From assembly GCA_024641335.1 (NCBI GenBank), contig JAHEDG010000005.1:27779-91778 (forward strand): a stretch of DNA of 64,000 nt. The letters are read 5' to 3'. Shown in pieces: positions 14,899-35,916 of this stretch. Source of the DNA: Candidatus Zixiibacteriota bacterium (GTDB lineage Bacteria; Zixibacteria; MSB-5A5; UBA10806). The notes below the pieces were generated by a model. The model did no database searches, was not told where the DNA came from, and saw only the letters and a program-made list of their open reading frames with translations. Numbering within the stretch: position 1 is the stretch's first letter; the number at the start of each line of letters is the position of its first letter. Made by a program: the position numbers and the translations under genes.

Positions 14899-14954
14899 TT
14901 TCCATCCCTTATTTAGATTGTTGCTCGAAAATACCAACGACCCGCTGGTTATTA

Positions 14955-17267
14955 TTAAAGGCCGTTTGAGGGCAAACTGGCTATAGCTGAAGTAAGGTAG
15001 GTCTGCTGGCTCTGAATCTTGCCCATCGCTTCTTCCATCGCCAAAAACTGCAGGTAGAGACTCTCCCTTTTTTTCTCCAGCTGTTCCTGCATTCTGACCA
15101 ATTGATCTTTTATATTATCTATCTGTTTCTCTATGCCCCTGGTTCTGTAACTCAAAATGCCCGAATTTGCGTCGGTATAACGGTTTATTTTTTCGTCGAG
15201 AAGCGAAGCTATTCCTTTTGTCAGGAACACTTTGCCCTCTGCCCCATCGACCACCTGATCTGACGTCAGATTAATTTTCAACTTCAGGCCGGCCGTGTTC
15301 TCATTTTCATCATCACCTGTCAGTATCTGTCCCACTCCCTTGGCGGTTTCGCCGTTAATCGTCCCCTCGATGTCGACACCGCTGGTTGATACGCCACCGT
15401 CGAAACCCAGAATAGCGTGGGCGCTGGAGGTCGGCTCCAGGCCGATCTCTACCCTGGAATTGGAACCCCATAATGTGGAATTTATGGTGAAATGACCGCT
15501 AACGCCTTCATCCACCCAAACCACCTCGACCTCATTGCCTCCGAGATCGTTATTGGAGTTGATTTTATCCTGGATCTCCTGGGCCAGTTCCGCGCCGGAA
15601 GTGTAAGTCTTTGCCGTTAACGATATAGACCCGGACTGTGCCCCGTTGACTTTTATCCGAATATTGTTATTACCGCTATTTAGAACCAGGTTTTCCGTGC
15701 TGGGATTAGTTATCGATCCGGTGCTGAATATTCCATGAGTAGCGGCCTGTGTGACATCAACGTCATACCCCGATGTTGACGGAACCGTTTTGGCCCCTGA
15801 GGCAAGGAAAGTTATGTAACCGCTGTCGGAAGAGCCTGAAGCCAGGAACAGCTTCTTGATACCCTCGGGATCCTCGCTTAATTTCTGGTTCAGGACTGTA
15901 TTGTCAACTTTCAATTTACCGTAAATATCAAATTTGATTCCGATATCGGACAATTTGGTCAAGCCACCGGTCAGACCTTTGATTTTTTGGGTAATTGCCA
16001 AACGAACATCCGATAACATTGATACCAGAGATGTTTCTCCAAGAAGAACTCCGGCTTGCTTGGTTTTGGAATCGAACTTCATCTGATCTTCGACAAACTC
16101 CGCGAACTCATTGTATTTGGTTACGAATTCGCTGATAGTCGAAGTTATGCTGGAGGTGTTCTGCTGAACCGAAATACTCACCGGAGTGGCCGAGGTCTTT
16201 TTCAGATTTAGAGTTACACCATCAATCAAGCCGGTCACCGTATTTGTGCTTGAAGTCACGCTGATGGGCGATCCGCTGTTGCCGGAGGAGCCGAGCCTGA
16301 TTATAGCGTCCTGCCCCTGCTGCAGAGTAGGAGCCATAGCCTGGACCTGGAACGTATCCCCGGCGACCAAATCGCCGGCGCCGAACGATAATGTCAGTCC
16401 GTCCGAACCGGTTCCGGACAAAGCGACCTCGGTTAGAGCCGAGTCTACTGTAATAGTCCCGGAATTGGTTCCGTCGCTCCAGTTGATATCTATGGAACCG
16501 CCGCCGACAGTCTGTGTACCGGAACCGCCTACGGTAAAAGTGTAAACTTTATTGGCGCTGCCGGTATAATCGGCTGAGGAACCGAGAACCGCGCTGGATG
16601 TCGATTCGGCAGACCAGCGCATTGTTTCCGGAGAATCGAAGTAGTTGTCGATAAAATCGGGAGGTTCTCCGCCGACCAGGCTGGAGGTAAACGTAATCTC
16701 GCTTTCGGCCCCGGTTTCATTTGATGTCAGAATCAGACGGTACGGATTGTTTGAAGATCCGTCATTGATAATAGCGGCCGATACACCGGCATCGGAATCG
16801 TTGATAGCATATTTCAGCGCCGAAAGGCTGTTGCTGCCGGCTTCCAACGTAATTGTGATCGGGGACGAATTACCGACCTGTATCTCAATGGTTCCCTCCC
16901 CGACAATGTCATTCACGCTGGAGTATCCCTGACTGGCGATCTGATGATTCTGGGCCAGCTGATCGACCGAGAGAAGATAAGTGCCTGTCGCTGAACTGCC
17001 GGTAGAAGACGCCGCGATTACCGTATCGTCAGACGATGTGACTGATATGGAATCCCAGATGGATGATTTGGAGAGGACATCCGACTGAGTTTTAAATGCC
17101 AGTAAAAATGAATTTATCGATTGCCATGAAGTTACTTTCTGAGTGTATTCCGCCTGGCGGGCCAGATACACATCCATCTTCCTGGCTTCGGATTTCATTA
17201 CATTTTCGATGATACCCGTGGTATCCATCCCGGAGAAGATACCGTCTATTCTTCCGAACATTCCCAT
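14955..17267 (-). CDS. fliD: flagellar filament cap protein FliD (unusually long, 770 aa)
   Basis: The N-terminus GIFSGMDTTGIIENVMKSEARKMD and the C-terminus LEKKRESLYLQFLAMEEAMGKIQSQQTYL are FliD terminal domains. A large Ser/Thr/Gly-rich central insert is present. Confidence 0.85.
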   Translation of the reverse strand: MGMFGRIDGIFSGMDTTGIIENVMKSEARKMDVYLARQAEYTQKVTSWQSINSFLLAFKTQSDVLSKSSIWDSISVTSSDDTVIAASSTGSSATGTYLLSVDQLAQNHQIASQGYSSVNDIVGEGTIEIQVGNSSPITITLEAGSNSLSALKYAINDSDAGVSAAIINDGSSNNPYRLILTSNETGAESEITFTSSLVGGEPPDFIDNYFDSPETMRWSAESTSSAVLGSSADYTGSANKVYTFTVGGSGTQTVGGGSIDINWSDGTNSGTITVDSALTEVALSGTGSDGLTLSFGAGDLVAGDTFQVQAMAPTLQQGQDAIIRLGSSGNSGSPISVTSSTNTVTGLIDGVTLNLKKTSATPVSISVQQNTSSITSTISEFVTKYNEFAEFVEDQMKFDSKTKQAGVLLGETSLVSMLSDVRLAITQKIKGLTGGLTKLSDIGIKFDIYGKLKVDNTVLNQKLSEDPEGIKKLFLASGSSDSGYITFLASGAKTVPSTSGYDVDVTQAATHGIFSTGSITNPSTENLVLNSGNNNIRIKVNGAQSGSISLTAKTYTSGAELAQEIQDKINSNNDLGGNEVEVVWVDEGVSGHFTINSTLWGSNSRVEIGLEPTSSAHAILGFDGGVSTSGVDIEGTINGETAKGVGQILTGDDENENTAGLKLKINLTSDQVVDGAEGKVFLTKGIASLLDEKINRYTDANSGILSYRTRGIEKQIDNIKDQLVRMQEQLEKKRESLYLQFLAMEEAMGKIQSQQTYLTSAIASLPSNGL

Positions 17268-17463: not shown

Positions 17464-17496
17464 AATAAAAAAGGGGGATGGCTCGTTCCATCCCCC
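17464..17496 (-). terminator. rho-independent terminator after fliC
   Basis: Minus-strand GGGGGAUGG-aacgag-CCAUCCCCC followed by UUUUUUAUU. Confidence 0.7.
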
Positions 17497-17515
17497 TTCC
17501 ATCAAAGAGATTGAA

Positions 17516-19750
17516 TTATCTGAACAACGAGAGTATGACCTGAGGAATCTGGTTGGCTTGAGCCAACATGGCCGTACCGGCCTGCATCAGGATCTGATGC
17601 TTCACGAAGGTTGACATCTCCTTAGCCATATCGGTATCACGGATATTCGATTCGGAAGCGGTCAGGTTCTGAGCCGCGATCCTGAGGTTGGTCAGGTTCG
17701 ACTGCAGAGTGTTCTTCTGGAACGATCCGAGTTTACCGCGAATATTGGTGACTTCGTTGATGGCCTGGTCGATGATCTTCTGTGTATCCTGAGCGCCCTG
17801 CGACGTGGTAACGTCGATGTCGGCCAGACTCGAGAACGTAACGTTATCGAGACCGGTGCCCAGATACGAGGCCGAAAGATTATCGATACCGATTTTAGCC
17901 GTCTGTCCCACGTTAGCGCCGATCTGGAAGACCAGGCTTCTGTCGGTGACATAAAGCTGCTCGGTGCCGCCGTCTGATTTCAAAGAATAACGCACTTTGA
18001 GATATTGATCTCTCTGGGCGTTGAAGACTGTGGCTTCTTTGCCGGCCACTACGGTGGTCTCCTGACCGCCATCCAGTCTCACGGCATAGGTTCTGGCTTT
18101 GACGCTCAACAGCATGTTACCGATGTTAATTCCGCCGTTGGTTTTGGCCATGGCCACGTCCAAAGTTATGGAACCGCGAGCTTCGGCATCCTGGCTGGAA
18201 TAGAATGTCTTGGAATCGCTGGTGTATTCGGCAGTGAAGTAATAACGAACGTCGTCAACGTTATTGTTGTAACCGTCGAGCCGAACTATGGCGTCCAAAC
18301 CCTTGTTGGCGGTCTGGTCAACGGACAATCCGATAGCGTTGAAAAGCGCGGTAGCCGTACCACCGGTGGTTTCGACTTTCAGCGAGTACTTGGAGCCTTC
18401 ATCCATGGTGTAGAGTTTCAGTTTCTGGAATCCGCCCTGGGTAACCACTGTCGCAAATACTCTCGACGTGGTGCCGTCGCCGACATCCCCGAAGCTGGCG
18501 AGCAGCTGGGTGTTAATGGAAGCCACTAAAGCCGAAAGAGTGGAGTATGTGCTATTGCCGACTTCGAATGTTCTGGTGGCTGAAACCGCCGCAATCTGGG
18601 CGCCGGTAGCGTATTCAGCGGTAATGCTCAGGAAGCTGCTGGAAACGCCGCGGTCGTTCTGGCTGGCCAAACTGCCGAGGCTGGTCTGGACGGTAGCATT
18701 GGTAGCTGTGATCGAACCGACTGCTATCGAATAGTTCGTGCCAACGTTGGTTGACTTGATAGCGATCGAATCGGGAGCTCCGACATCGGCCGAAGCCTGC
18801 ATCTTACCGGCCAGGTAAGTGTTGGCGTTGATGGCCGCGTTCAGCTTGGCAACAATATTGGCTGCCAGGTCACCTGTAGCTACGCCGGTATCGGTCCGGA
18901 TTGTCAGGGACTGCATACCAACAGCATTGGTGCCGGCTTCCTGGAAATTAAGCTGGAAGGTGATGGTGAACTGCTGGGCAGCCGCCAGAGAGTCAAAGTT
19001 TGTGACCGCACGGACCTTAGCCTCGCGGACACTGGCTTGGGTGCTATTGACCTTGATTCCATTGCCCCAGGCATCCAGAGCGCTGACCGCGGTACCGACT
19101 TTGGCGGCTCCTGACGAAGCCTGGATGACGTCGATATTATGAACGCCATCGGAAAGGTTATAGGGACCGGTCGGATTGGTCAGGCCGAAACTGGTAACGT
19201 CCAGAGTGGCTTCGGATTCGGTCAACAAAACGCTGGAAACACTGTGAGAACCCTCGGCAAGAGAGGATTCACCGATTCTCAATCCGGAGACATTGCTGGT
19301 GGTTATGGCGGCAACGTTGGCAGCCGAACCATCAATCAACTTCTTGGTTCCAAATTGAGTATTGGCCGCGATTCTATCGATGGTACGAATCGCGTTTGTA
19401 ATTTCAGCCTGGTCGGCAGCCAACTGGTTCTCGTCGTTAACGCCTTCGTTAGCGGCGTGAATAGCCAGTTCTCTCATACCAACCAAAAGATTGTTAATCT
19501 CGTTGAGGGCGCCTTCCGCGGTCTGGATCATGTTGATCGAAGCCTCGGAGTTCTGTACCGCGCGATTTAACGCCGCGATTTGAGCGCGAAACTGCTCTGA
19601 AATTACCAATCCGGCCGGATCGTCGGCTGCTCTGTTTACTCTGAAACCGGATGACAGCTTCTCCATTGTCGAAGACATCGAACCGGTCGTAACCGTCAGG
19701 TTTCTCCAGGCATCCAACGCCGTAATGTTGTGGTTAATTCTTAACGCCAT
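17516..19750 (-). CDS. fliC: flagellin (744 aa, with a large hypervariable central domain)
   Basis: The N-terminus MALRINHNITALDAWRNL...LSSGFRVNRAADDPAGL and the C-terminus ...QAGTAMLAQANQIPQVILSLFR are canonical flagellin D0/D1. The central ~450 aa are Ser/Thr/Ala/Gly-rich. Confidence 0.9.
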   Translation of the reverse strand: MALRINHNITALDAWRNLTVTTGSMSSTMEKLSSGFRVNRAADDPAGLVISEQFRAQIAALNRAVQNSEASINMIQTAEGALNEINNLLVGMRELAIHAANEGVNDENQLAADQAEITNAIRTIDRIAANTQFGTKKLIDGSAANVAAITTSNVSGLRIGESSLAEGSHSVSSVLLTESEATLDVTSFGLTNPTGPYNLSDGVHNIDVIQASSGAAKVGTAVSALDAWGNGIKVNSTQASVREAKVRAVTNFDSLAAAQQFTITFQLNFQEAGTNAVGMQSLTIRTDTGVATGDLAANIVAKLNAAINANTYLAGKMQASADVGAPDSIAIKSTNVGTNYSIAVGSITATNATVQTSLGSLASQNDRGVSSSFLSITAEYATGAQIAAVSATRTFEVGNSTYSTLSALVASINTQLLASFGDVGDGTTSRVFATVVTQGGFQKLKLYTMDEGSKYSLKVETTGGTATALFNAIGLSVDQTANKGLDAIVRLDGYNNNVDDVRYYFTAEYTSDSKTFYSSQDAEARGSITLDVAMAKTNGGINIGNMLLSVKARTYAVRLDGGQETTVVAGKEATVFNAQRDQYLKVRYSLKSDGGTEQLYVTDRSLVFQIGANVGQTAKIGIDNLSASYLGTGLDNVTFSSLADIDVTTSQGAQDTQKIIDQAINEVTNIRGKLGSFQKNTLQSNLTNLRIAAQNLTASESNIRDTDMAKEMSTFVKHQILMQAGTAMLAQANQIPQVILSLFR

Positions 19751-19753
19751 TTA

Positions 19754-19845
19754 ACTTCCTCCTTGAATTTGTGCTAACGTTCCTTTGTCAGCATTGTTTA
19801 TGGTTAGTGCGATAAATTATCTTTGGTAATGCACCTCCTTATGGA
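19754..19845 (-). promoter_or_regulatory. fliC 5'-leader with GGA motifs (candidate CsrA binding sites, one overlapping the SD)
   Basis: The leader (minus sense) contains cauaAGGAGGug, acaaAGGAacg and ucaAGGAGGaaguuaaAUG. The last motif overlaps the SD, and csrA and fliW are encoded nearby. Confidence 0.45.
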
Positions 19846-19888
19846 ATTACAGCTAATTCAATCGCTTTAATCTCTTTTCACTGGCTAT

Positions 19889-19919
19889 ATGATCGACAGA
19901 AAAAGAATAGCTCTTTAGT
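19889..19919 (-). promoter_or_regulatory. sigma-28-like promoter for fliC
   Basis: Minus-strand cTAAAGagctattctttttctGTCGATCAtat, i.e. TAAA-N16-GTCGATCA with 6/8 matches to GCCGATAA, about 130 nt upstream of the fliC ATG. Confidence 0.4.
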
Positions 19920-19947
19920 TTATAACGTTTTTTTTTGAAACAGTCGG

Positions 19948-22758
19948 CTATCGAATGGTTGGCATTTTGCCATACTCGTCTATGTCACGCAAACGATTGC
20001 TCGCCAATTGGTTGCCGGGATTTATCTGAAGTACGGCCTTATAGCCGGCCATAGCCGAGCTGATTTTTCCCAGATTCAGATAGCAATCCGCCAGTCGAAG
20101 CAAAGCTTCGAACTGTTTGGGGTTCTTTCTAATGTATCTTTCATAGAAAGGAATGGCTGTCCAATAGTTTTTGTTGTTGTAATGAAGATCTCCAAGAACG
20201 GCTTGAACCTCTGTATCGCCGGGAATCAAAGTAAGGTATTTTTCAAAGTAGGAAATCGACTCTTCATTCTTGTTTTGTTTCATCAGGGAAACAGCCAGAT
20301 TCCGATATCCGAAAGGAAAGTCCGGTTGATTCTCCAATGACATTCTATAACATTCCTCGGCTGACGAAAAATTGCTCTGCTTAAGAAAACAGTTTCCGAG
20401 ATTATTCCATGACGCGTAATCATTCGGATTCTGCCGGGATTGAGTCTGATAGCTTCCGGCGGCGGAAGCGTAATTGCCGAATTCGTATAAAAGATCGCCT
20501 TTGGCCATTAACACCTGTGGAGCGGTGGGGTATTTTTCCAGCAGCCGGTTAACCAGCTTGAGCGATTTCTCGTTATCGCCGTCGAGCGACGCCGCCGAGG
20601 CCAGCCCCAGCAATGACGGATAATATTCGGTATCGAATTCCAGAGATTTATTGAAACATTCGGCGGCTTTATCGGCCAATTTTTGATTCAAATATGTTTC
20701 ACCCTTCAAAAGATAAATCTCCGCGTCGGTATGACCGTGCCCTATGGCCTGATCGCAGTGAAAGTGAATTTTTTCCAAATTCTTTTTAGCCCTATAGCAT
20801 CGAGCTAGAAGATGATGGGTGAACTCATAATCCCCGCGCATTTCGATGACCGTATTCAGATATTCGATAGCTTTATCGATCTTGCCGGCCATAAACATCG
20901 AAAGACCCATACCGTAATAGGCCGAAAACTGGCTGTTGAGGTTATTCAGAATAAGCCCGTGCCATTCCCGATGTTCCGAGTAGCAGTCTCTGGCGGTCAG
21001 ATATCGATGAAACGCCTCCACCGCTTTATCGTACTCTCCCCCCTTGGCGAAAACATAACCGAGGTTGAACATGGGATCGAGGTAATCCTCTTTTATCTCC
21101 AGGGCTTTATAAAAATATTCCCTGGATTTTTCGAGCTGGTTTAATCCTTCGTATCCGCAGCCGATCTGATCGAGGGCCATTATATAAACATGCCTGTGAT
21201 CCACATCATCGGGGCCGATCAGCTCTATGGCTTTCAAGGCATGTTCCACACTCAAATCGGGCCTGGACATACCTCGATAAATCTGAGCCAGATTAAAATG
21301 GGAAAAGGCGTTATCCGGATCTTCCTCCAGCTGTTTTAGAAGAAGAGCCTCGGTTCTTTTGGCTTTGGCCTTCATCTGATCGTCGGAAAGCCCGTAACCA
21401 TGATGATATACTTTCAGGGGGCTCGCCAGAGAAACACCCTCCATCTTCAGCTGATTATGCACGATACCGTCATAACGGAATTCGGGACGGTTGCGAAACA
21501 GCCGGTGAGAGTTTAAAAATCCGGTGCGTCCCTGCTGTATTTTGTTCAAAACCACAAACGAGACAGCGTCGATATCCTTGCGTTTGGCGGCGTTTCTGAT
21601 CATATCATGTTCCGAAACTTCCAATTCCTCATCGGCGTCCAGGATCAGAATCCAGTTGCCTGTGGCATAATCGATCGATTGGTTGCGATGCAGCGAGAAA
21701 TCGTTCTGCCAGGGATGCTGATAAATTTTAGCGCCGTATTGGGCGGCGATTTCCATGGTACGGTCGGTTGAGCCGGTATCGACCAGTATTATTTCATCCG
21801 CGAGATCCTTAGCGCTTTCAAGGCATTGCGGAAGGAACTTCTCTTCATTCTTTACTATCATGCAAAGCGATATTTTTTGAGGATTCTTATCTATTGTGTT
21901 TTTCAAATGGCGCAGGTTGGATACCGCGACTTCATGTTTGGGATCGATAGCGATAGCTTTGTTGTAATATTGCTCCGCCCCGTCGTAGTCTCCCCGCTTT
22001 TCAAGGGTCACGCCGTAGTTTACCAGGGCGTCGACATCCTTAGGATGTTTTTTTAGTATATTCGAGAGAACCTCGAAGGCCTGATCGAACATCTCGCCGT
22101 CACCGTATACCAGAGCCTTGGCGTTCTCAAAAGCTATTTCATGAGGATATAACTTTGATCCTTCTTCGAGGACCTCGATAGCCGCTTCTATTCTTCCGTC
22201 TTTGCCCAGGTTGGTGGCGAAGACAATCCGGCGGAAATGATGGCCGGGATCGATTTTGACCGCTTTCTTCTGGTATTCCAGCGACTCCTTGATATTCAGA
22301 GTCCGCCTGGCAGCCTCGGACGCCATCCAGAGTGCGTCATTGAGATTATTATATGTCTGAGTCAAATATGATTCGTATTCAGTGTCTTTCTTGTCCCGTT
22401 CGGAAAGAAAGGATCTGGCCGATTCCAGAGCCTTTTCGAAATCGGAAAGATCGTTATATACCGCTGTTTCCAGAAAATAAAGATCCGGATAACCCCCGAA
22501 TTCGGCTCGCGCTTCCGCCAGTACCCCGACCGCCTCGGCCGATTGTTTTTTATTCAAAAGCGACAATACAAGACCATAATAAGCCAATGCCAGGCTTTCG
22601 CGCTGACCAGCCGCCTTGGCCTGACGCAACGCTTCTCTGAAATATTTCCCGGACTGCGAGATATCGTCCTTCTTGATATTTTCCCGCGCCAGTTTTAGAA
22701 GATCCCCGGTTTTTACCGTGAGCTTTTTATTTTCCGATTTTTTTTGTTTCTTGCCCAT
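19948..22758 (-). CDS. TPR–GT2–TPR glycosyltransferase (GmaR-like candidate flagellin glycosyltransferase)
   Basis: 936 aa. The central family-2 GT motif (ISLCMIVKNEEKFLPQCLESAKDLADEIILVDTGSTDRT...ILILDADEEL) is flanked by many TPR repeats on both sides. The gene is immediately upstream of fliC. Confidence 0.75.
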   Translation of the reverse strand: MGKKQKKSENKKLTVKTGDLLKLARENIKKDDISQSGKYFREALRQAKAAGQRESLALAYYGLVLSLLNKKQSAEAVGVLAEARAEFGGYPDLYFLETAVYNDLSDFEKALESARSFLSERDKKDTEYESYLTQTYNNLNDALWMASEAARRTLNIKESLEYQKKAVKIDPGHHFRRIVFATNLGKDGRIEAAIEVLEEGSKLYPHEIAFENAKALVYGDGEMFDQAFEVLSNILKKHPKDVDALVNYGVTLEKRGDYDGAEQYYNKAIAIDPKHEVAVSNLRHLKNTIDKNPQKISLCMIVKNEEKFLPQCLESAKDLADEIILVDTGSTDRTMEIAAQYGAKIYQHPWQNDFSLHRNQSIDYATGNWILILDADEELEVSEHDMIRNAAKRKDIDAVSFVVLNKIQQGRTGFLNSHRLFRNRPEFRYDGIVHNQLKMEGVSLASPLKVYHHGYGLSDDQMKAKAKRTEALLLKQLEEDPDNAFSHFNLAQIYRGMSRPDLSVEHALKAIELIGPDDVDHRHVYIMALDQIGCGYEGLNQLEKSREYFYKALEIKEDYLDPMFNLGYVFAKGGEYDKAVEAFHRYLTARDCYSEHREWHGLILNNLNSQFSAYYGMGLSMFMAGKIDKAIEYLNTVIEMRGDYEFTHHLLARCYRAKKNLEKIHFHCDQAIGHGHTDAEIYLLKGETYLNQKLADKAAECFNKSLEFDTEYYPSLLGLASAASLDGDNEKSLKLVNRLLEKYPTAPQVLMAKGDLLYEFGNYASAAGSYQTQSRQNPNDYASWNNLGNCFLKQSNFSSAEECYRMSLENQPDFPFGYRNLAVSLMKQNKNEESISYFEKYLTLIPGDTEVQAVLGDLHYNNKNYWTAIPFYERYIRKNPKQFEALLRLADCYLNLGKISSAMAGYKAVLQINPGNQLASNRLRDIDEYGKMPTIR

Positions 22759-22781
22759 ATTATCATTCTCGTCTTTCAGGT

Positions 22782-23369
22782 TTAATTCAGGGAACGCGAC
22801 CCCAACTCCGCCAGTCGGTCCTCTATAGCTTTATCTTCCGGATGTATTGCCAGATATTTCTCATAAATTCCGATCGAATTCTCGGATTCGCCCAATTCCT
22901 CCAGGGCCTGCGCCCACATTAACAGCACCTCGCCGGCTTTTTCTCTGGTGTTTATCCCGTAATCACGCTTTTCAAGATCAATAGCCGCGTGAAGTTCAGC
23001 AAAGCTTTCGGCGAATTTAGGGACTCTGGCGGTTTCGCCGTTTACCGCGGCGATAACCAGTTCGAAATATACTATGTCGAGATAATTTCCAAGCTGACGC
23101 CGGGCGTCATAGCAGACCTGCCGGGCTTCATCGAATTTATTCTGCTGCAGATTCGCCAGGCACCAGAGATAATATGCCTCCGACGCTATCCTGGGCATCC
23201 GAAGGCTGATAGCGTCGCCAACCGTTGTTCGGCAATAATCGACAGTTATAGCGAAATTACGTTTGCCGAAACTGGTTTTGGCCAGCTTCATGAATTTGTC
23301 CAGATCGGCGGCCTGAGGAACCCTGGCAGGAAGTTCATTTTTGATTTTTGCGATTTTCTGTTTTATCAT
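22782..23369 (-). CDS. TPR-like helical repeat protein
   Basis: 195 aa with helical repeat character and no catalytic motif recognised. Confidence 0.4.
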   Translation of the reverse strand: MIKQKIAKIKNELPARVPQAADLDKFMKLAKTSFGKRNFAITVDYCRTTVGDAISLRMPRIASEAYYLWCLANLQQNKFDEARQVCYDARRQLGNYLDIVYFELVIAAVNGETARVPKFAESFAELHAAIDLEKRDYGINTREKAGEVLLMWAQALEELGESENSIGIYEKYLAIHPEDKAIEDRLAELGSRSLN

Positions 23370-23371
23370 AT

Positions 23372-23911
23372 TTATTTTCTCTTTCTAATCACCCTGGCTG
23401 GTGTTCCCACGGCCACGGCGAAATCAGGAATGTCCTTATTTACCACGCTTCCAGCTCCTATCTGCGCCCCGCGCCCGATATTTACTCCCGGCAAAATAAC
23501 GCTTAAGGCCCCGATATCGGCGCCATCGCCGATAACCACACGACCGTGCCGCAGCGGGGAATGAAGTATCGGTATTTCCGAATCGTCGATATCATGCTGG
23601 GATGTTATTATCGATACCCCCGGCCCTATTCCGACATGCTCCCCTATTTCAATATCGCCGGACGCATATATAAAGCATCGGGGTCCGATCCAGGTCCCGG
23701 AACCTATGACCAATTTACGATCATAATATCCCTTTATTATAGCGTCATGTCCGACATAAACATCATCTCCTATCTCGACATAACGGGCCAGGAATACACG
23801 GACGCCATCCTCGATCACCACTCCCTCGCCCAGCCGCCGAAAATCGCGGTCATCGCCAGGTCCGTGGCTGTTCCATTTCTTGCTTGTTATCTCCTGCGTT
23901 TCCGGATTCAA
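23372..23911 (-). CDS. hexapeptide-repeat (LbH) sugar N-/O-acetyltransferase
   Basis: 179 aa with repeated [LIV]GxxxxI hexapeptides (IGDDVYVGHDAII..IGSGTWIGPRCFI..IGEHVGIGPGVSI), in the PglD/WbbJ class. Confidence 0.75.
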   Translation of the reverse strand: MNPETQEITSKKWNSHGPGDDRDFRRLGEGVVIEDGVRVFLARYVEIGDDVYVGHDAIIKGYYDRKLVIGSGTWIGPRCFIYASGDIEIGEHVGIGPGVSIITSQHDIDDSEIPILHSPLRHGRVVIGDGADIGALSVILPGVNIGRGAQIGAGSVVNKDIPDFAVAVGTPARVIRKRK

Positions 23912-23923
23912 TTCCCCTCCCGA

Positions 23924-25084
23924 TCAACCCTTGAATTCACGCGACACCGTCACTTTTTCGTCAAGTTTCGGGATTGCGATAGTAAGATAGTTTTTTATAA
24001 CCGCGATTACTTTATCCTGTTCTTTTTCGGTTATCCCCTCATAGAGCGGTAAACTGATCAGATTGCGGTATGCCTTCAACGATTGTGGATATTGAGTCTC
24101 GTCGATCTTGTATTTTTCGGCGTAATACGATGTATGCGGAATCGAATATGTCCCGATCCCTGCCTCGATACCGTTTTCCCCGAGATACTTTATCAGCGAA
24201 TCTCTGTGACCGTCGGAGACAGAGCCGATATAGGTCTGATAATTTACTTTACAGGTACCTTGGGGTTCCGGCGGACTGATAATCCTTGAGTCGCCGAGGT
24301 TTTCATTATAATATTTTCCGGCCGTTATTCGCGCCCGCAGAACCGCGTTAAAACGCTTCATCTGCGAAACCCCTAACGCGGCCTGAAATTCTGTCATCCT
24401 GTAATTAAATCCCGGCGCCCTGAAATCAGGACCCGGATTATACTGCTGCCCGTGATTGCGAAGTTCTTTTATTCTTTCGGAGATCCGGGAATCATCGGTG
24501 ACCACAACCCCGCCTTCGCCGGTAGTCAGGATCTTCCTGGGATGAAAACTGAACCCGGCCAGTCTCCCGAAATTTCCGCAGCGGGATCCTCCCACGCTCG
24601 ATCCAAGGGCACAGGCGGCATCTTCAATTATCGGCAGATCATGCCTGGCGGCGATGCTTTGAATTTTATTAATATCCATCGGCCAGCCGAAATTATGGAC
24701 GACCATTATCGCCCTGGTTCGGGATGTTATCTTGTTTTCGATCGCGCCCGTATCGATATTGAACCCGCCGAATTCCGAATCGACGAAAACAACTTTCGCT
24801 CCGGTCAGCTCTACGGAATTAGCGCTGGCTGGATAACTAAATGCGGGTACTATTACCTCGTCGCCGGCCCTGATTCCCATCGCCAGTAAACCGAGATGCA
24901 AAGCGGCTGTCCCCGACGAGACACATACGGCGTATCGGACCTTCAGATAGGTGGCCAGCTGACGTTCGAACGTTTCTACCGTTTTTCCGCTGATTAATTT
25001 GCCGGATTTCAATACCTCGACGGCTGAAGCGATGTCATCATCCGACAAGCTCAGCCTGACGAGGGGTATGCTGGATTTTGTCAT
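23924..25084 (-). CDS. DegT/DnrJ/EryC1/StrS-family PLP-dependent sugar aminotransferase
   Basis: 386 aa; SIPLVRLSLSDDDIASAVEVLKSGKLISG...FSFHPRKILTTGEGG... matches the nucleotide-sugar aminotransferase fold. It overlaps the upstream gene by 47 nt. Confidence 0.85.
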   Translation of the reverse strand: MTKSSIPLVRLSLSDDDIASAVEVLKSGKLISGKTVETFERQLATYLKVRYAVCVSSGTAALHLGLLAMGIRAGDEVIVPAFSYPASANSVELTGAKVVFVDSEFGGFNIDTGAIENKITSRTRAIMVVHNFGWPMDINKIQSIAARHDLPIIEDAACALGSSVGGSRCGNFGRLAGFSFHPRKILTTGEGGVVVTDDSRISERIKELRNHGQQYNPGPDFRAPGFNYRMTEFQAALGVSQMKRFNAVLRARITAGKYYNENLGDSRIISPPEPQGTCKVNYQTYIGSVSDGHRDSLIKYLGENGIEAGIGTYSIPHTSYYAEKYKIDETQYPQSLKAYRNLISLPLYEGITEKEQDKVIAVIKNYLTIAIPKLDEKVTVSREFKG

Positions 25085-26027
25085 AGTACCAATCCGCGGT
25101 CTTTTTGAGACCTTCCTCTAAATCTATCAAAGGGTTGAAATTCAATATTGTCATGGCTTTGTCTATGTTGGGAATACGCAGCTCCACGTCGGCCTCGTCC
25201 TTGGGAACAAAGACTATTTTCGATTTGGAATAGGTGACGCGAATTACCGCTAACGCCAGTCCGTAAATGGTAACAGTGCCGCGAGGATTACCGATGTTAA
25301 AGCACTCTCCTATCGATTTTTCGTTCTCCAGCGAAAGCAGGATTGCGTCGGCGATATCGTCGATATAGCACCAGGAACGGATCTGATCGCCGTTGCCCCT
25401 GATGACCAGATCCTCTCCTCGTAAAGCTCTGGTAATAAAATGATGTACCGCCCCCTCGCCTACCTGGCCGGGGCCGTAAATGTTAAACGGTCTTATCGTT
25501 GTGGTGGGCAGGCTCTTCTCTGAAAAATAGCTGTAGGAAAGATGTTCTCCGGCCAGTTTCGATACCGCGTATGTCCAGCGCGCGTTCCCCACCGCGCCGA
25601 GCGATGTGGTATCGCCTTCCTCCGAACGAAACGCGTATGAGCCGAATACCTCCGAAGTGGAAAAATCCACGAACCGCTCCAGCGATGAAAGCTCCTCGGC
25701 CGCTTCGAGCATATTGGCGGTCCCCAGCATGTTGACTTTCATGGTATTAATCGGAGATTTGATGACCGTATCGATCCCGGCGACTGCAGCCAGATGAATA
25801 ACTATATTCGCCTGCCCGATATGGCTCTTGATTCTCTCCAGATCGAGTATATCTCCCCGCACCGACGCCAGATTCGGGTGATTGCGGAGTTTCTGGCCGT
25901 TCAGGCTGTACCTGTTGAAGGTATCGTAGATCGTAATCTTATTGTTGTCGATAAGCCTGCTCACCAGGGCCGATCCTATGAAACCCGCTCCCCCGGAGAT
26001 AAATATGTTCTTACCCTTGATCGCCAC
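25038..26027 (-). CDS. NAD-dependent nucleotide-sugar epimerase/dehydratase (SDR family)
   Basis: 329 aa with a Rossmann motif (ISGGAGFIGSAL), a catalytic YAVSK (YxxxK) and an STSEVFG motif. Confidence 0.85.
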   Translation of the reverse strand: MAIKGKNIFISGGAGFIGSALVSRLIDNNKITIYDTFNRYSLNGQKLRNHPNLASVRGDILDLERIKSHIGQANIVIHLAAVAGIDTVIKSPINTMKVNMLGTANMLEAAEELSSLERFVDFSTSEVFGSYAFRSEEGDTTSLGAVGNARWTYAVSKLAGEHLSYSYFSEKSLPTTTIRPFNIYGPGQVGEGAVHHFITRALRGEDLVIRGNGDQIRSWCYIDDIADAILLSLENEKSIGECFNIGNPRGTVTIYGLALAVIRVTYSKSKIVFVPKDEADVELRIPNIDKAMTILNFNPLIDLEEGLKKTADWYYDKIQHTPRQAELVG

Positions 26028-26035
26028 TGATCCTC

Positions 26036-27727
26036 CTATTTCAACAGATACGCGTCGTTGTCCTCGGCGTATCTGTGGCCATTCATTACAAAATCGTACA
26101 TCCAGAGATATTGACGAATAATCTTCATTGGGTCATGATGAGTCCTGGCCCAACTCCTGCCCTGCTGACCGATTCTGGTGATCTCGCCTTTGTTTTTCAA
26201 AAGATGCTCCAATTTTTCGTAGAGATTGCCCTCGTTAACATAGACAATCGGGTTTTCCGGATGATAGCTGGCGGCAAAATTGGAGATCCCGCAAAGCACC
26301 GCATGCCCGGCGGCCATCGATTCGATAGCCGATAACCCGTAGATACCCACCGATATCTGATCGTAGGTGATATGGCAGCGGCTCTTGATATCCAGACATT
26401 CATCGTTGGATTTACCCTCGATCAATTCCACTTCGACCGGATACTTTTCCTTCAGTTTTTCCACAGTAGAAAGAAACAGATCGGTTTTCTTAAATTGCCG
26501 ATTGGTGGGAGGATGACAAATCCGTACGACATCGGCAGGAGGAGACGCCGGTTTTATGCGCGAGATATCGCACATCATATTTATATGGTAAAAAAGCGGG
26601 GCCTTTTCCAGCATGGTGTGATCCCAGGCGGAAAGGCCGGTTATTTTATTTTCATTATGCCATTTATATATATCAGCCCCGTGAGCCCTGATCTCCGAAC
26701 CGTAATACTGAACCAGAGAGTTATTTGGCTTTAGATACTTGCCCCAGTCGAGATCGTTGAAATTTTTCGGGAAACGTCCGATATGGTAAAAATCAGCCTT
26801 TTCGATTATCTTGACCGCCTCTTCGAAATCATCGCTGTTCCCGTTGGAAAGTATCAGATCCTTATCGTAAGAAAGATAATCGCCATTGAGAATAATGAGC
26901 CTGGCCTTGTGTATGGTGTAACGGTTGAGCATCCTGAATAGCAGCGATAACTGTCCGGCGATATTGAAATCCGCGACCACGGCGATATTTTGGCCGGTCT
27001 TCTTCTCCCATAATTCCTCGGGCACATGTTTTAAAAATATGTCATCGGTTTTGGCCGGTTGTTTCTTGGTGATCGTCAATGTTCCCTTGGGCTGCTTTGT
27101 CTCTGGTACAACCGGGGCAGCCGCCGCTTCGAGTATTAGAGATTTATCGTCGGAAGGCTGGTCAACCGGAACGATACGGTTTGTTTTTTTCGCCGGGACA
27201 TTATTCAGATATTTTTCTATCCACTCCAGAGCCTCGGAGTAGTTTTCGTTTTCCCAGCAGATCTCGAAAAGATTCATCAGCGCTCTCTTATAAAGAGGAT
27301 TCGCGCCAAGGGCTTTGATAAAATGCCCTCTGGCCAGATGCTCTTTGCCCTGAGAGTGGTAAAGCACACCGAGGTCATTGTGAGCCGCGAAATCGCCCGG
27401 ATTCAGCTCTACGGCCTTGAGGAAGTTCTCCACCGACTCGGAAAATCGGGATTGCTTGCTGTGAACCAGGCCCAGGTTGTAATAAGCGTCGCAGTTATCG
27501 GGATTATTGTTAAGAACGGATCCGAAAGCGTTTTCGGCCTTATAATAATCACCGCGTTCGGCATATATGGTACCCTGGGTGTTTAACAACTGAGGGTCGT
27601 TGGGATTATTTTCGAGAAGATAACGAACGGATTCCTCCGCTTTATCCAAATCGCCGTCAGCTAACTCCTGGGCCAGCTGCTCATAAGAAATAACCTGTTT
27701 TTTTTCGGTATCGATTGTTTCCGCCAT
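26036..27727 (-). CDS. TPR-domain protein with a C-terminal GT-B-like glycosyltransferase domain (FlmG-like architecture)
   Basis: N-terminal TPRs (YYNLGLVHSKQSRFSESVENFLKAVELNP) are followed by a C-terminal ~350 aa with a GT4-like E...E region (ESMAAGHAVLCG). The start is reassigned to MAETIDTEK at 27727 (SD GGAAGAGG); the track start is 27817. Confidence 0.5.
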   Translation of the reverse strand: MAETIDTEKKQVISYEQLAQELADGDLDKAEESVRYLLENNPNDPQLLNTQGTIYAERGDYYKAENAFGSVLNNNPDNCDAYYNLGLVHSKQSRFSESVENFLKAVELNPGDFAAHNDLGVLYHSQGKEHLARGHFIKALGANPLYKRALMNLFEICWENENYSEALEWIEKYLNNVPAKKTNRIVPVDQPSDDKSLILEAAAAPVVPETKQPKGTLTITKKQPAKTDDIFLKHVPEELWEKKTGQNIAVVADFNIAGQLSLLFRMLNRYTIHKARLIILNGDYLSYDKDLILSNGNSDDFEEAVKIIEKADFYHIGRFPKNFNDLDWGKYLKPNNSLVQYYGSEIRAHGADIYKWHNENKITGLSAWDHTMLEKAPLFYHINMMCDISRIKPASPPADVVRICHPPTNRQFKKTDLFLSTVEKLKEKYPVEVELIEGKSNDECLDIKSRCHITYDQISVGIYGLSAIESMAAGHAVLCGISNFAASYHPENPIVYVNEGNLYEKLEHLLKNKGEITRIGQQGRSWARTHHDPMKIIRQYLWMYDFVMNGHRYAEDNDAYLLK

Positions 27728-27865
27728 GATCAGGCCTCTTCCAATTTTACTATTCTTGTTTTTTTCGAATGTCCCGTTGATCCGGCAGGCCGGCCATTTC
27801 GTTGAACTTCCTGACAAATGGCCTTTGAAAACGTTAACCCGGCCGGGAATTTTACTAACTGATAC

Positions 27866-28324
27866 TCAAACCGATTTGCTCATCAATCTGCTTTCCAAGT
27901 CCGCGAATATATAGTGCTCCACACCGTATTCGCTGTCCGCGAGTATTAGCTGAGCGGCGTGCTTGTTGCCGGAATTCATGACCACAGGCGCCTGAAGATT
28001 AGCCGACATTTTTTCAGGACGCCCTGCGGGAATAGTAATCAAAACAAAAATACCCGCCTCGGCGATCTTAGTAATACCCAGAACTTTCAGATCCTTGGGA
28101 TTAATGTCCACCACGTAATCAGGCTTAAAGAAAAGAGGTTCCAGCATAAGAAAAGCCAACTCGGAATTTTCCACTGATTGCAGCCATTTGAACGGCTCCT
28201 GCCCTTCCACGGCCACGATGATAAATCTCTTCAGATCCTCAAAACCGAGTATGCCGCGCACCATCAAGATTATATCCGATTTTTTATATTCGATTTCCCC
28301 GAATTTGGCTGTTTCCAGTATCAC
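27866..28324 (-). CDS. fliW: flagellar assembly factor FliW
   Basis: 152 aa; the pattern FGEIEYKKSDIILMVRGILGFEDLKRFIIV...PFKWLQSVE is typical of FliW. Confidence 0.85.
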   Translation of the reverse strand: MILETAKFGEIEYKKSDIILMVRGILGFEDLKRFIIVAVEGQEPFKWLQSVENSELAFLMLEPLFFKPDYVVDINPKDLKVLGITKIAEAGIFVLITIPAGRPEKMSANLQAPVVMNSGNKHAAQLILADSEYGVEHYIFADLESRLMSKSV

Positions 28325-28340: not shown

Positions 28341-30257
28341 CTACCTCAAAAATTGCAGTAATGACGGCTGAAGCATTTTCGAGGCCGATGCCAGCGCCGC
28401 CTGGTAAGCCGCTTCCGCGGTAGCCAGATCGGTGATTATTCTGGCAAAATCGGCATCTTCGATTTCAGACAGCTGGTTGGTAACCTGTATCTCGAACGAA
28501 AGGAGCCGGTATGATGCCGTCTCGCCCCTGTTAACTCTCGATCCGACGTCCGCTCTCTCATTGAGAACCTTATCCAGAGAGCCGTCAAATGTCTCCAGAC
28601 ATAAGCCGATCTCTTCGGTTTCGTTATTTTCAAGCGATCTGGATAGTACCATCATATTTCCCAAAATATCGGGGGAACCGAATATCCCGAGATCCTTGGC
28701 CGTTCGTCCGCCATCGGCCTCTATCACCATCAGAGATTGTCCCTCGACTTTGGAGAATAGCACGATTCCTGTTTTCTGTTCGTTTATCCTCGCCTCGACA
28801 TCGACCCCCGATGAGTTGATAAGATTGATAACATCCATAATTGTAGCGTCGGGATTACTGGTCATCGGAGAAAGATCGATATCCTTGGAGTTATGCCCGT
28901 TAGTTATTCTGAATTTCCCAAGGGGAAATCCCTGACCGTTGTTTAAAGCTGTCAGCTTGGTGAAGTAGGCGATTTCCGGGTCGAGATCATTTCCATCCAG
29001 GTAATTGAATTCGGCCTGCTTCAAAAGCCCCAAATTCTTGGCCGTGTTCTCGCCTGGAGCGTTTTCGACCACCTGAATATGCAAAGGAGCCAGATCCGTG
29101 CCTTCCATGCTCGATAATACCTCGCCCAGAATGCCCAAATCGGCCGCCGTATGGCTGCCCGACGCAACTTCTGTTATTACAATATCCAAAGGCGCGACAT
29201 TGGTATCTGTTATATGAAGAGCGTTTTTCTCCAGGTCTATCGACGCCGTGACATTGTTTATACCTCCGGCGGGCAGTTGCGTATTGATAGCCGTAAGGAC
29301 GTCCCCGACCGTAACCGCCGCGGTTATATCCACATCGACCGCCACCCCTCCGGCGGTTTCGAAATGTATCAGCCCTGTCGATTGATCTATACCCAGGCCG
29401 CCGTTAAGCAGGCTCAATGGGGTATTGGGATTAATATGATGAAGCGACGTATCTTCGAAAGCGAAGCCGCTCCCGGCATTATTTATCGTCGCGGTCAGAT
29501 TCGGGATAGCCAGGCCATTGACAGCGTCCATAATATCCTGAATATTCCTGGCCGCGGAAACGTCAACCACGTATTCGCCGTTTAGAGTTCTTATATTAAA
29601 TAAGCCTGCCCCCAGATCGACACCGTTGCCGTTATAAAGATAATCGAGCCATAAAGTTGGTTGTATGCCGACACTTAAGTCATGACCGTCCCCCAATGTG
29701 CGGGATGGAGAAGTCAGAAAATCCGCGGCATTGGAGTTTATCCCCAGATATGAGGCCGATTCGGTTTCCAGTAGTATTTTGGAGAAATCCCCCTGGTAGA
29801 CGATCCCCATGGCGTTGACATTAAACGGTTTGACATTGGTTCGGGTACCGGAGAAAATATAATTCCCCTCGAACTGCGTATTGGCGGCATCGATTATCTG
29901 ATCGAACAAATCTCTGATTTGGGTAGCCCCGCCCCGCCTGGCATTTTCGTCATAAGTATCGTTGGCCAGCTGAACACCCAGCTCCTTGGCGCTGGAAACC
30001 AGATCATTTATATTGCCCAAAGCCTGATCGGAAAATCCGAGCCAGGATAAACCCTGGTCTATATTTTTTCTAAACTGGGCCAAATCGGCGAGGTCCGATC
30101 TGAATCCGAGATCCTTGGTTATTCCGATAGGGTCATCGGACGGACGGTTAATACGTCGACCGGAGCTGGCCAGGGTTTGTAACCGCAGGAACCGCGACTG
30201 CGCCAGAGATAAATTCCTGGTCACGGTGTTGTTGATCATGTTCGAGGTTATTCTCAT
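28341..30257 (-). CDS. flgL: flagellar hook-associated protein 3 FlgL (638 aa)
   Basis: The N-terminus MRITSNMINNTVTRNLSLAQSRFLRLQTLASSGRRINRPSDDPIG and the C-terminus ...AYQAALASASKMLQPSLLQFLR are flagellin-like termini. A long central insert is present. Confidence 0.85.
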   Translation of the reverse strand: MRITSNMINNTVTRNLSLAQSRFLRLQTLASSGRRINRPSDDPIGITKDLGFRSDLADLAQFRKNIDQGLSWLGFSDQALGNINDLVSSAKELGVQLANDTYDENARRGGATQIRDLFDQIIDAANTQFEGNYIFSGTRTNVKPFNVNAMGIVYQGDFSKILLETESASYLGINSNAADFLTSPSRTLGDGHDLSVGIQPTLWLDYLYNGNGVDLGAGLFNIRTLNGEYVVDVSAARNIQDIMDAVNGLAIPNLTATINNAGSGFAFEDTSLHHINPNTPLSLLNGGLGIDQSTGLIHFETAGGVAVDVDITAAVTVGDVLTAINTQLPAGGINNVTASIDLEKNALHITDTNVAPLDIVITEVASGSHTAADLGILGEVLSSMEGTDLAPLHIQVVENAPGENTAKNLGLLKQAEFNYLDGNDLDPEIAYFTKLTALNNGQGFPLGKFRITNGHNSKDIDLSPMTSNPDATIMDVINLINSSGVDVEARINEQKTGIVLFSKVEGQSLMVIEADGGRTAKDLGIFGSPDILGNMMVLSRSLENNETEEIGLCLETFDGSLDKVLNERADVGSRVNRGETASYRLLSFEIQVTNQLSEIEDADFARIITDLATAEAAYQAALASASKMLQPSLLQFLR

Positions 30258-30461: not shown

Positions 30462-30701
30462 CTACTTCTTCTTTTTGGCTCTGATGATCCTGGCCATTTC
30501 CTGAAGGTCCTCTTTCAATGACATCGAAGCCTTCACATTTTCACTCTGTATCTTCCTGAAAATCTCTTCTCTATAAACCGAAACTCGTTCAGGGGCGGTA
30601 ATTCCGATTTTTACCTGCTTACCCGATATCCCCAGCACAGCTATTTTAATATCGTCGCCGATGGCTATCGATTCCCCCGACTTCCGTGTCAGAATTAACA
30701 T
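30462..30701 (-). CDS. csrA: carbon storage regulator CsrA
   Basis: 79 aa; [47 protein letters not shown] is the canonical CsrA sequence. Confidence 0.9.
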
Positions 30702-32669: not shown

Positions 32670-33542
32670 TTATTCCGAGCTCATTGACGACATCACTTTT
32701 CGGACATAATTCCGGGTTTCCGGAAATGGCGGTATCCCGTCGTATCTTTCCACCATCGACGGCCCGGCATTATACGAAGCCAGAGCTTTCTGCAAATCTC
32801 CCCCAAACCGCTTCATCAGCATAGAGAGATATTTGGCCCCGCCCATAATATTCTGGACTGGATTAAATGGATCCTGAACCCCGACCATAGCGGCGGTGGA
32901 ATCTATTAGCTGCATTAATCCTTTGGCTCCCTTACCCGAAACAGCTCTCGGATCTCCCGCGGACTCATGCTTGATAACCGCCTTGATCAGCTTGGGCTCC
33001 AACTCATATTTTTCGGCCGCCTGGTTGATAATATGATCGAATCGCGAGAGAGTATCATGATCGATAGGCTTAGCTCCGCCGCTTTGAACTCCTCTGCCCG
33101 AAATCTCCGTCAACATGGGTTCGACCACGGTCATATCAGGTTTGATTTCCATCTGTTTAATCTCCGGCTGCCTGATAATACTGGTATCCAGCCCTTTTCC
33201 CGCTTCGACCCCTTTTTGCCCGGTTACCAGTGACGCGTACTGATTGAACAATAAATCGCCGATCTTGAATTGGCTAGTTCTGGACATTTCCTCTGCCAGC
33301 TTGCCGTCAAACATTTCCTTATAAATATCGTTGCCCAGGCCTCCCCCGAACAAATCCGATTCCTCCGAGGCTTTTCTCATACTCTTGAGCATAAACGAGA
33401 TAAAAATCGCCTCGAAATCCTTGCAGGCCTTCTGCAATTTCTCGAGCTTTACGTCCTGCTTGTCCTTAGCCGAAACCGGAGAACTTTGGGCCGCGGGCTT
33501 ATCGGCCAGAAACTGAGAGATATTCGGATTGAATATTTTCAT
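32670..33542 (-). CDS. flgJ: FlgJ: N-terminal rod-binding domain fused to a C-terminal SLT-type lytic transglycosylase
   Basis: The N-terminus FEAIFISFMLKSMRKASEES...DIYKEMFDGKLAEEMS is a rod-binding domain. The C-terminus ESAGDPRAVSGKGAKGLMQLIDSTA...SYNAGPSMV carries the SLT family motif. Confidence 0.75.
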   Translation of the reverse strand: MKIFNPNISQFLADKPAAQSSPVSAKDKQDVKLEKLQKACKDFEAIFISFMLKSMRKASEESDLFGGGLGNDIYKEMFDGKLAEEMSRTSQFKIGDLLFNQYASLVTGQKGVEAGKGLDTSIIRQPEIKQMEIKPDMTVVEPMLTEISGRGVQSGGAKPIDHDTLSRFDHIINQAAEKYELEPKLIKAVIKHESAGDPRAVSGKGAKGLMQLIDSTAAMVGVQDPFNPVQNIMGGAKYLSMLMKRFGGDLQKALASYNAGPSMVERYDGIPPFPETRNYVRKVMSSMSSE

Positions 33543-34657: not shown

Positions 34658-34658
34658 A

Positions 34659-35243: not shown

Positions 35244-35252
35244 TTTTCCTCC

Positions 35253-35915: not shown

Positions 35916-35916
35916 C

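Follow-up and report, generated by a model that had tools for sequence, protein, structure and literature searches.

Glycosylation of flagellin affects filament assembly, motility and recognition, and the enzymes that carry it out are tools for glyco-engineering. GmaR, the flagellin O-linked N-acetylglucosamine (O-GlcNAc) transferase of Listeria, is a bifunctional protein that also acts as the anti-repressor of MogR. In FlmG, a tetratricopeptide repeat (TPR) domain binds flagellin and a GT-B domain sets the donor specificity (PMC7591256; bioRxiv 10.1101/2022.03.25.485807), and in Maf-1 acceptor specificity is given by a TPR (bioRxiv 10.1101/2023.12.03.569772). The glycosylation islands of Pseudomonas, Clostridium, Geobacillus and Aeromonas cluster genes for a short-chain dehydrogenase/reductase (SDR), a DegT aminotransferase, an acyltransferase and glycosyltransferases (GTs) with flagellin, fliD and fliS; in Clostridium, genes combining GT2 and TPR domains have been used as predicted flagellin glycosyltransferases (PMC13317340). 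Here we describe a comparable cluster, located between fliW and the flagellin gene in a member of the uncultured phylum Zixibacteria (Candidatus Zixiibacteriota bacterium; GenBank assembly GCA_024641335.1, contig JAHEDG010000005.1, positions 27,779 to 91,778 of the forward strand; this whole stretch of 64,000 nucleotides (nt) is referred to below as the window). From its gene content, homologies and conserved position, we are fairly confident that the cluster is a flagellin glycosylation module.

The cluster consists of six consecutive minus-strand open reading frames (ORFs) spanning 19948-27817, which were assigned from the ORF list, Pfam and NCBIfam. In the direction of transcription, these encode a protein with TPR and GT-B domains (26036-27727), an extended SDR of 329 amino acids (aa; 25038-26027; Epimerase, E 3.7e-51), a DegT aminotransferase of 386 aa (23924-25084; DegT_DnrJ_EryC1, E 3e-105), a hexapeptide acetyltransferase of 179 aa with a left-handed beta-helix (23372-23911; Hexapep, E 2.5e-15), a small TPR protein of 195 aa (22782-23369; a weak TPR_14 match, E 4.6e-8, and no NCBIfam match) and a TPR-GT2-TPR protein of 936 aa (19948-22758). 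They are not chance ORFs, since they are long and have very strong family matches. Intergenic gaps range from -47 to 23 nt, and transmembrane segments were predicted in none of the six proteins (FlhA and FlhB, used as controls, were positive). The cluster is flanked by flagellin, fliD and fliS on one side and by fliW, flgL, flgK and flgN on the other, within a flagellar gene block of approximately 50 kb. An earlier note on this DNA had listed the same six genes, with the same coordinates and domains, and had read them as a flagellin glycosylation island; the ORF list and Pfam agree with that gene list, and the anatomy, genomic associations and GmaR homology of the proposed island stand, while its description as inserted and its dehydratase-based sugar logic are not supported.

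The position and content of the cluster are nearly fixed across the phylum. One genome per species was scanned for related loci, which gave 22 loci, and the window proteins were mapped onto these by script. In all of the informative Zixibacteria-type loci (15/15) the gene order is flgN, flgK, csrA, flgL, fliW, TPR-GT-B, SDR, DegT, (acetyltransferase), small TPR, GT2-TPR, flagellin and fliD. The G+C content of the cluster (0.46-0.52) is the same as that of the remainder of the window. Because gene order is the same in all of these loci and composition is unremarkable, the cluster belongs, as judged from synteny, to the ancestral flagellar operon of Zixibacteria; we rejected a recent horizontal insertion, and the description of the cluster as inserted, given in the earlier note, is not supported. 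In this respect it differs from the islands of the four genera named above, which are hypervariable and strain-specific; the present cluster also differs from them in lying between fliW and flagellin and in having no Maf or nonulosonic acid genes among the ORFs that were scanned.

Among the Zixibacteria loci, L007, L008 and L017 keep the SDR and DegT genes without an acetyltransferase gene, so that on gene content acetylation is dispensable there, or is provided from elsewhere. The Zixibacteria-type loci that extend far enough have an orthologue of the small TPR protein (31-45% identity) in the corresponding place; this protein is possibly an adaptor or specificity factor and may assist acceptor recognition. 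A second Zixibacteria clade (L010, 13058-14047; also L011, L013, L015, L016, L021 and L024) has one additional gene, for a 329-aa product, between its DegT and acetyltransferase genes. This product has a Formyl_trans_C domain only, is weakly similar to Fmt and the ArnA formyltransferase, and lacks an evident N-terminal catalytic His motif. We gave this gene no weight as support for an Arn-like pathway, since the match is weak and confined to the C-terminal domain of Fmt.

The larger of the two putative transferases has a Glycos_transf_2 domain (PF00535) at residues 297-422 (E 2.4e-22), with TPRs at approximately residues 188-290 and 575-920 (Pfam). Among solved structures, leaving TPR matches aside, it matches GmaR best (22ao_A, E 1.9e-31); the peptide S-glycosyltransferase SunS ranks second. 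Identity between the GT2 domain and GmaR is 38% over 185 residues and rises to 48% over the first 103. When the GT2 domain was used to search for homologues, the matches were short GT2-TPR proteins and did not include the Zixibacteria orthologues, which were instead taken from the retrieved loci. The motifs KNEE, STD, W-NDFS-RN, DAD and H-GY show no variation among the Zixibacteria orthologues, GmaR and SunS, and DAD is kept in 16 aligned sequences; such invariance of catalytic motifs argues for an active enzyme. The link to GmaR suggested by the earlier note is thus borne out, and we predict that this protein is a GmaR-like, protein-directed glycosyltransferase of the GT-A fold. Like GmaR of Listeria monocytogenes, it is soluble, is encoded at a flagellar locus and has a TPR region C-terminal to a homologous GT-A catalytic domain. 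Unlike GmaR, it carries an extra N-terminal TPR block of approximately 290 residues, which contributes to its length of 936 aa, and it is accompanied by a second TPR-fused transferase and a dedicated sugar pathway.

The second putative transferase is encoded by an ORF that extends to 27817 (593 aa). Its start is most likely Met31 (27727), which gives a protein of 563 aa, because this matches an identical database protein (P0001) and the homologues. Approximately residues 40-215 (ORF numbering) form the TPR region detected by Pfam. The C-terminal 331 aa gave no Pfam match above gathering score; the best scores for Glyco_trans_1_2 and Glycos_transf_1 were 20.8 bits against a cut-off of 25 and 14.2 bits against a cut-off of 26.4, and weak sub-threshold matches to these two domains recur in 21/28 and 14/28 family members, respectively. 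An AlphaFold2 model of this region, built from 43 homologues, has a mean predicted confidence (pLDDT) of 92.8. Its top Foldseek matches are PimA, BshA, PglA and MshA (E 7e-11 to 1e-8, TM-score 0.64-0.69, 11-14% identity), and the protein glycosyltransferase SdgB appears lower in the list. The Glu of the segment IESMAAG, the usual donor-binding segment, is invariant in the alignment of the GT-B family. On the strength of this model, we confidently assign the C-terminal domain to the GT-B fold, with GT4 enzymes as its nearest relatives.

The protein has the same architecture as FlmG, and the TPR and GT-B-like reading that it had been given from sequence inspection was correct. Compared by architecture, it resembles FlmG of Caulobacter crescentus and Brevundimonas in its N-terminal TPR and C-terminal GT-B domains, its solubility, its length (563 aa against 596 aa) and its flagellar context. 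The donors are expected to differ: FlmG uses CMP-activated (cytidine monophosphate-activated) pseudaminic or legionaminic acid, whereas the fold in the window is nearest to GT4 enzymes that use donors of the nucleoside diphosphate (NDP)-hexose type. None of the matches of the TPR-GT-B protein bears the name FlmG, and the cluster names of ten of its relatives are uninformative. MAF_flag10 (PF01973) was found by Pfam in no protein of the cluster and in no other window protein that was scanned, and on domain content membership of the Maf family is excluded for both transferases.

Homologues of the TPR-GT-B protein come nearly all from Zixibacteria metagenome-assembled genomes (MAGs). In that phylum its gene is always beside the SDR-DegT pair, and the same pairing occurs in a deltaproteobacterial MAG. 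Because the pairing is constant, we argue that the transferase uses the product of the adjacent cassette, and we predict that it is a flagellin-directed, GT4-like glycosyltransferase with that product as its donor.

What this product would be depends chiefly on the SDR. A search of the SDR against the Protein Data Bank (PDB) gave one outstanding match, 8vr2 (E 3.5e-117, 394 bits, 55% identity), which is entitled 'Pcryo_0617 oxidoreductase/decarboxylase from Psychrobacter cryohalolentis K5'; all other matches were at or below 139 bits. A structural model of the SDR superposes on 8vr2 with a TM-score of 0.88-0.91. The second-tier relatives of the SDR are human UDP-xylose synthase (UXS1, 139 bits; UDP, uridine diphosphate), ArnA and EvdS6 decarboxylases, mixed with epimerases. 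The sequence contains the motifs GGAGFIGS, STSE and YAVSK. T-D-E is the motif of RmlB-type 4,6-dehydratases, and in its place the SDR has S-T-S-E. We therefore predict from homology that the SDR is a UDP-hexuronate C4-oxidase and C6-decarboxylase of the ArnA/UXS type that forms a UDP-4-keto-pentose.

The earlier note had seen in the same genes a dehydratase, an aminotransferase and an acetyltransferase acting in the manner of bacillosamine or pseudaminic acid synthesis. If the SDR were a 4,6-dehydratase, the cassette would make a 4-acetamido-4,6-dideoxy-hexose of the N-acetylviosamine or bacillosamine type, or would feed a pseudaminic or legionaminic acid pathway encoded elsewhere. Flagellin glycans built on viosamine do occur in Pseudomonas syringae (PMC3927599), and the top NCBIfam matches are of this kind: dTDP-glucose 4,6-dehydratase (deoxythymidine diphosphate-glucose 4,6-dehydratase; 166 bits) and LegB (131.7 bits, cut-off 475) for the SDR, and PseC (291 bits, cut-off 423.5) and LegC (232 bits, cut-off 420) for the aminotransferase. 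All of these fall below their cut-offs, those for the PseB, PseC, LegB and LegC families being missed widely (PseB reached 51.6 bits against 407.75), and the closest characterized homologue of the SDR is by far the decarboxylase; the SDR itself has S-T-S-E rather than T-D-E, and UXS, ArnA and EvdS6 decarboxylases are its next relatives. Furthermore, Pfam and NCBIfam revealed no nonulosonic acid synthase (NeuB/PseI), CMP-transferase, PseB/PglF-type enzyme or Maf among the scanned window ORFs of at least 150 aa, a scan from which a few ORFs of that size and all smaller ones were left out. The synthase, the CMP-transferase and Maf are likewise absent from the rod/ring block at 33542-37450, as judged only by the annotated counterpart in L001. 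We consider the dehydratase alternative unlikely, and an amino-pentose to be favoured over bacillosamine or pseudaminic acid because the SDR shares 55% identity with the P. cryohalolentis oxidoreductase/decarboxylase.

The best PDB matches of the DegT protein are 9bgp, 8vr5 and 8vr3 (231-236 bits), followed by perosamine synthase and ArnB; like PseC and LegC, the NCBIfam ArnB model stays below its cut-off. The protein is predicted to be a pyridoxal phosphate-dependent C4 aminotransferase acting on a UDP-4-keto sugar. Its gene overlaps that of the SDR by 47 nt, with a comparable overlap in the annotation of L001. For the hexapeptide protein, WcaF-like and NeuD/PglB/VioB-like NCBIfam matches lie below their cut-offs, and its PDB matches include sugar O- and N-acetyltransferases as well as 8vr6; it is predicted to N-acetylate the 4-amino sugar.

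In two other lineages the cassette follows a set of genes for uronic acid formation. In L029 and L030 (Idiomarina and Pseudoalteromonas), genes for an NDP-sugar 6-dehydrogenase, a GFO-type oxidoreductase, a hexapeptide transferase and a DegT protein, a sequence that we take to be the WbpA/B/D/E order, are followed by an 8vr2-like SDR, a second DegT protein and a second hexapeptide transferase. The SDR, DegT protein and acetyltransferase of the window each match this downstream trio best, and in the same order (37-40% identity for the acetyltransferase). That the orthologous cassette is preceded by uronic acid-forming genes is a further point against a 4,6-dehydratase. P. cryohalolentis itself makes 2,3,4-triacetamido-2,3,4-trideoxy-L-arabinose (PMC8040287). 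The cassette in the window resembles the Pcryo_0617 pathway in its SDR and, through the related Idiomarina and Pseudoalteromonas clusters, in the order of SDR, aminotransferase and acetyltransferase. It follows the logic of the ArnA/ArnB pathway to 4-amino-4-deoxy-L-arabinose (Ara4N), in which oxidative decarboxylation by ArnA_DH precedes C4 transamination by ArnB. In those two pathways the sugar reaches O-antigen or lipid A through membrane-bound steps, whereas in the window the cassette is accompanied by soluble, TPR-fused transferases in a flagellar operon. WbpA/B/D/E-like genes, which supply a diacetamido-uronic acid in clusters of the Pcryo_0617 type, are not adjacent in the window, and the pentose therefore probably carries fewer acetamido groups. 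The more likely product of the cassette is thus a UDP-4-acetamido-4-deoxy-pentose, derived by a putative route from a UDP-uronic acid. Literature searches on the names of 4-acetamido-4-deoxy-pentoses gave nothing useful. To our knowledge, sugars of this class have been described in lipid A and O-antigens but not yet in flagella.

Just downstream of the cassette in the O-antigen-type cluster of Idiomarina (L029, 14635-15792), we observed a gene for a 385-aa protein without a Pfam or NCBIfam match, which shares 25% identity with the GT-B domain over 145 residues (E 3e-6). This suggests that a donor-specific glycosyltransferase lineage may travel with the SDR-DegT-acetyltransferase cassette.

The occurrence of the cassette within Wzz/Wzx-type clusters in Idiomarina and Pseudoalteromonas, and the service of its characterized homologue in O-antigen synthesis (PMC8040287), could also mean that the six genes contribute to lipopolysaccharide (LPS) or capsule polysaccharide and lie among flagellar genes by chance. 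The cluster, however, encodes no initiating phosphoglycosyltransferase, flippase, polymerase or any other membrane protein; both of its transferases are fused to TPR protein-binding domains, its position between fliW and flagellin is kept across the phylum, and it probably shares a transcript with fliW. We regard a role in polysaccharide synthesis as very improbable.

The proposed acceptor is the 744-aa flagellin encoded on the minus strand at 17516-19750 (Pfam Flagellin_N at residues 5-143 and Flagellin_C at 658-743). Between these conserved ends lies a variable region of approximately 505 aa (residues 151-655) with a Ser+Thr content of 21.8%. A large central domain had been anticipated (approximately 450 aa) and is present, but the special Ser/Thr richness ascribed to it is not: 21.8% is ordinary for flagellin variable domains and FliD reaches 23%, and we rejected Ser/Thr richness as diagnostic of glycosylation.

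These values also bear on whether the target is the filament protein at all. It could be another axial protein, such as the very large FlgL, FliD or FlgE, or some other protein, or the GT2-TPR protein could be mainly a regulator, in the manner of GmaR, whose bifunctionality is established. FliD (23%) and FlgE (19.6%) are also Ser/Thr-rich, FlgL, FliD and FlgE are all unusually large, and both transferase families have relatives away from flagellin genes, for instance at Ena spore-fibre genes. On the other hand, 197 nt separate the end of the GT2-TPR gene from the start codon of flagellin in the window, and the gene stands directly upstream of flagellin in almost all Zixibacteria-type loci that extend to this point; only the L001/L008 genome departs from this, with non-flagellar genes after the GT2-TPR gene. 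The TPR-GT-B gene is itself directly upstream of flagellin in Planctomycetota, the invariant GT2 motifs speak for enzymatic activity, and the scanned window proteins suggested no MogR-like gene, although no search was aimed at MogR. A target other than flagellin, or a mainly regulatory role, therefore appears quite improbable, and flagellin is retained as the proposed acceptor.

The 197-nt promoter and leader region of the flagellin gene (19751-19947, minus strand), read directly from the sequence, contains, by consensus resemblance only, a sigma-28-like element, TAAA-N16-GTCGATCA, and three GGA motifs of the CsrA type (AAGGAGG twice and AAGGAAC), one of which covers the Shine-Dalgarno sequence. 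These features suggest FliA-dependent transcription and translational control of flagellin by CsrA and FliW, as for Bacillus hag. The fliW gene (27866-28324, minus strand; FliW, E 1.6e-36 by Pfam) is immediately upstream of the cluster, separated from the start of the TPR-GT-B gene at 27727 by 138 nt. A hairpin scan gave no convincing terminator between fliW and a strong intrinsic-terminator-like hairpin 3' of the flagellin gene (17469-17500, minus strand; 13-bp stem with 7 GC pairs, followed by a T-tract). Given the short gaps and the lack of a strong terminator before position 17500, fliW is probably co-transcribed with the cluster.

Outside the Zixibacteria, some relatives of the two transferases are also associated with flagellin. 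In a Planctomycetota MAG, the TPR-GT-B gene that precedes flagellin does so directly upstream of an 811-aa flagellin gene. A deltaproteobacterial MAG encodes a GT-B protein without TPRs, followed by SDR, DegT and acetyltransferase genes, approximately 3 kb from FlaF-FlbT-flagellin. A paralogous TPR-GT-B module lies just downstream of fliS in L033, and two short GT2-TPR genes are directly upstream of flagellin-fliD-fliS in L026. The wider families are much larger, with 7501 representatives at E<=1e-3 for the GT-B domain and more than 2000 for GT2-TPR.

Taking these observations together, we lean towards a complete scheme in which the cluster is a cytoplasmic flagellin O-glycosylation module within a late flagellar operon, its enzymatic steps and the transfer being predicted from homology. 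The SDR would oxidize C4 of a UDP-hexuronic acid (UDP-glucuronic acid or an N-acetylated derivative of it, supplied by genes outside the cluster) and decarboxylate it to a UDP-4-keto-pentose, C4 of which the DegT enzyme would then transaminate. N-acetylation of the resulting amine by the hexapeptide transferase would give a UDP-4-acetamido-4-deoxy-pentose of the L-Ara4NAc type (Ara4NAc, N-acetylated Ara4N). The TPR domain of the TPR-GT-B protein would hold unfolded or chaperoned flagellin, to which its GT4-like domain would transfer the amino-pentose. The GmaR-like GT2-TPR protein may draw on a housekeeping UDP-sugar and attach a second sugar, plausibly GlcNAc, which would occupy other Ser/Thr residues or belong to a disaccharide. 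Flagellin glycosylated in this way would then be exported and polymerized.

Several points weigh against this scheme or parts of it. The organism is known from metagenomes only, and as no glycan has been observed, the case for function depends on homology and synteny; the syntenic evidence comes mostly from one phylum, so that the independent observations are few. The 64-kb window yielded neither an NDP-sugar 6-dehydrogenase nor any other source of a uronic acid precursor. The strongest PDB matches of the acetyltransferase are O-acetyltransferases and its gene is missing from three Zixibacteria loci, so that N-acetylation is not certain. The wider GT-B and GT2-TPR families also occur outside flagellar loci: no flagellin lies near the relatives in L020, L025, L028 and L034, those in L027 stand beside spore-appendage (Ena) genes, and a relative in L031 is found in a phage-like contig. 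By their distribution over these contexts, the two families are generally protein- or glycan-directed and not specific to flagellin.

Three of these loci contain further arrangements of the same domains. In Paenibacillus sp. P96 (L027, 6780-10261), three GT2 genes related to the GT2 domain of the window, two of them with weak TPR matches, are located among A_ENA endospore-appendage genes, which hints that Ena fibres may be glycosylated by the same GT2 family. In L031 (8001-10184), a phage-like contig with many small ORFs and a T4_Y16D match, a 727-aa protein carries the same GT-B domain as its C-terminal part. A Desulfobacteraceae MAG (L025, 3873-8765) has a 1631-aa open frame that fuses asparagine-synthase-like, methyltransferase and GT-B domains.

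The kind of system described here is already known; what appears to be new is the combination of two TPR-fused transferases of different folds with a decarboxylase-type amino-pentose cassette, in an uncultured phylum. Tentatively, the TPR-fused GT4-like proteins of Zixibacteria, Planctomycetota and a deltaproteobacterial lineage, whose family has no Pfam annotation, may form a distinct, unrecognized class of flagellin glycosyltransferase, which would add an Ara4NAc-type 4-acetamido-4-deoxy-pentose made from a decarboxylated UDP-uronic acid, in tandem with a GmaR-like GT2 enzyme. If this possibility holds, TPR plus GT4-like proteins would be a third architecture beside the GmaR-type and the FlmG/Maf-type flagellin transferases, amino-pentose chemistry known from LPS would extend to a protein glycan, and the decoration of flagellin, instead of being a strain-variable island, would be ancestral and fixed in an uncultured phylum. 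Heterologous reconstitution is realistic because the cluster is compact, with six soluble proteins and one acceptor.

Beyond the cluster, the fliD (14955-17267; 770 aa) and fliS (14467-14937) genes beyond flagellin, and flgL (28341-30257; 638 aa) on the other side of fliW, were identified by Pfam and NCBIfam. The fliW-csrA pairing that the earlier note had taken from Bacillus-like loci does not apply to the window: csrA (30462-30701, minus strand; 79 aa) is not beside fliW but between flgK and flgL, a position that is kept across the Zixibacteria loci. It was assigned from its ORF and sequence, and a Pfam CsrA gene is present at the same position in L001. In the Planctomycetota locus L002, unlike the Zixibacteria loci, fliW and csrA are adjacent. 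The flgI/H/A/G/F rod/ring block (33542-37450) was assigned only by synteny with annotated genes in L001. Besides this block, the remainder of the window contains fliA, flhF, flhA, flhB, fliO, fliN, fliL, flgE, flgD and fliK, and then housekeeping genes.

Three further features of the window were observed. FlgL, FliD and FlgE (767 aa; 56701-59004) have inserted central domains, as does flagellin. The region at 37450-39400, between flgF and a GAF/HisKA kinase gene, has a lower G+C content (0.43-0.45) and contains only small ORFs (69-140 aa). At the usual position of flhG, after flhF and before fliA, there is a 261-aa ORF (46576-47361, minus strand) with no Pfam match at E 1e-4.

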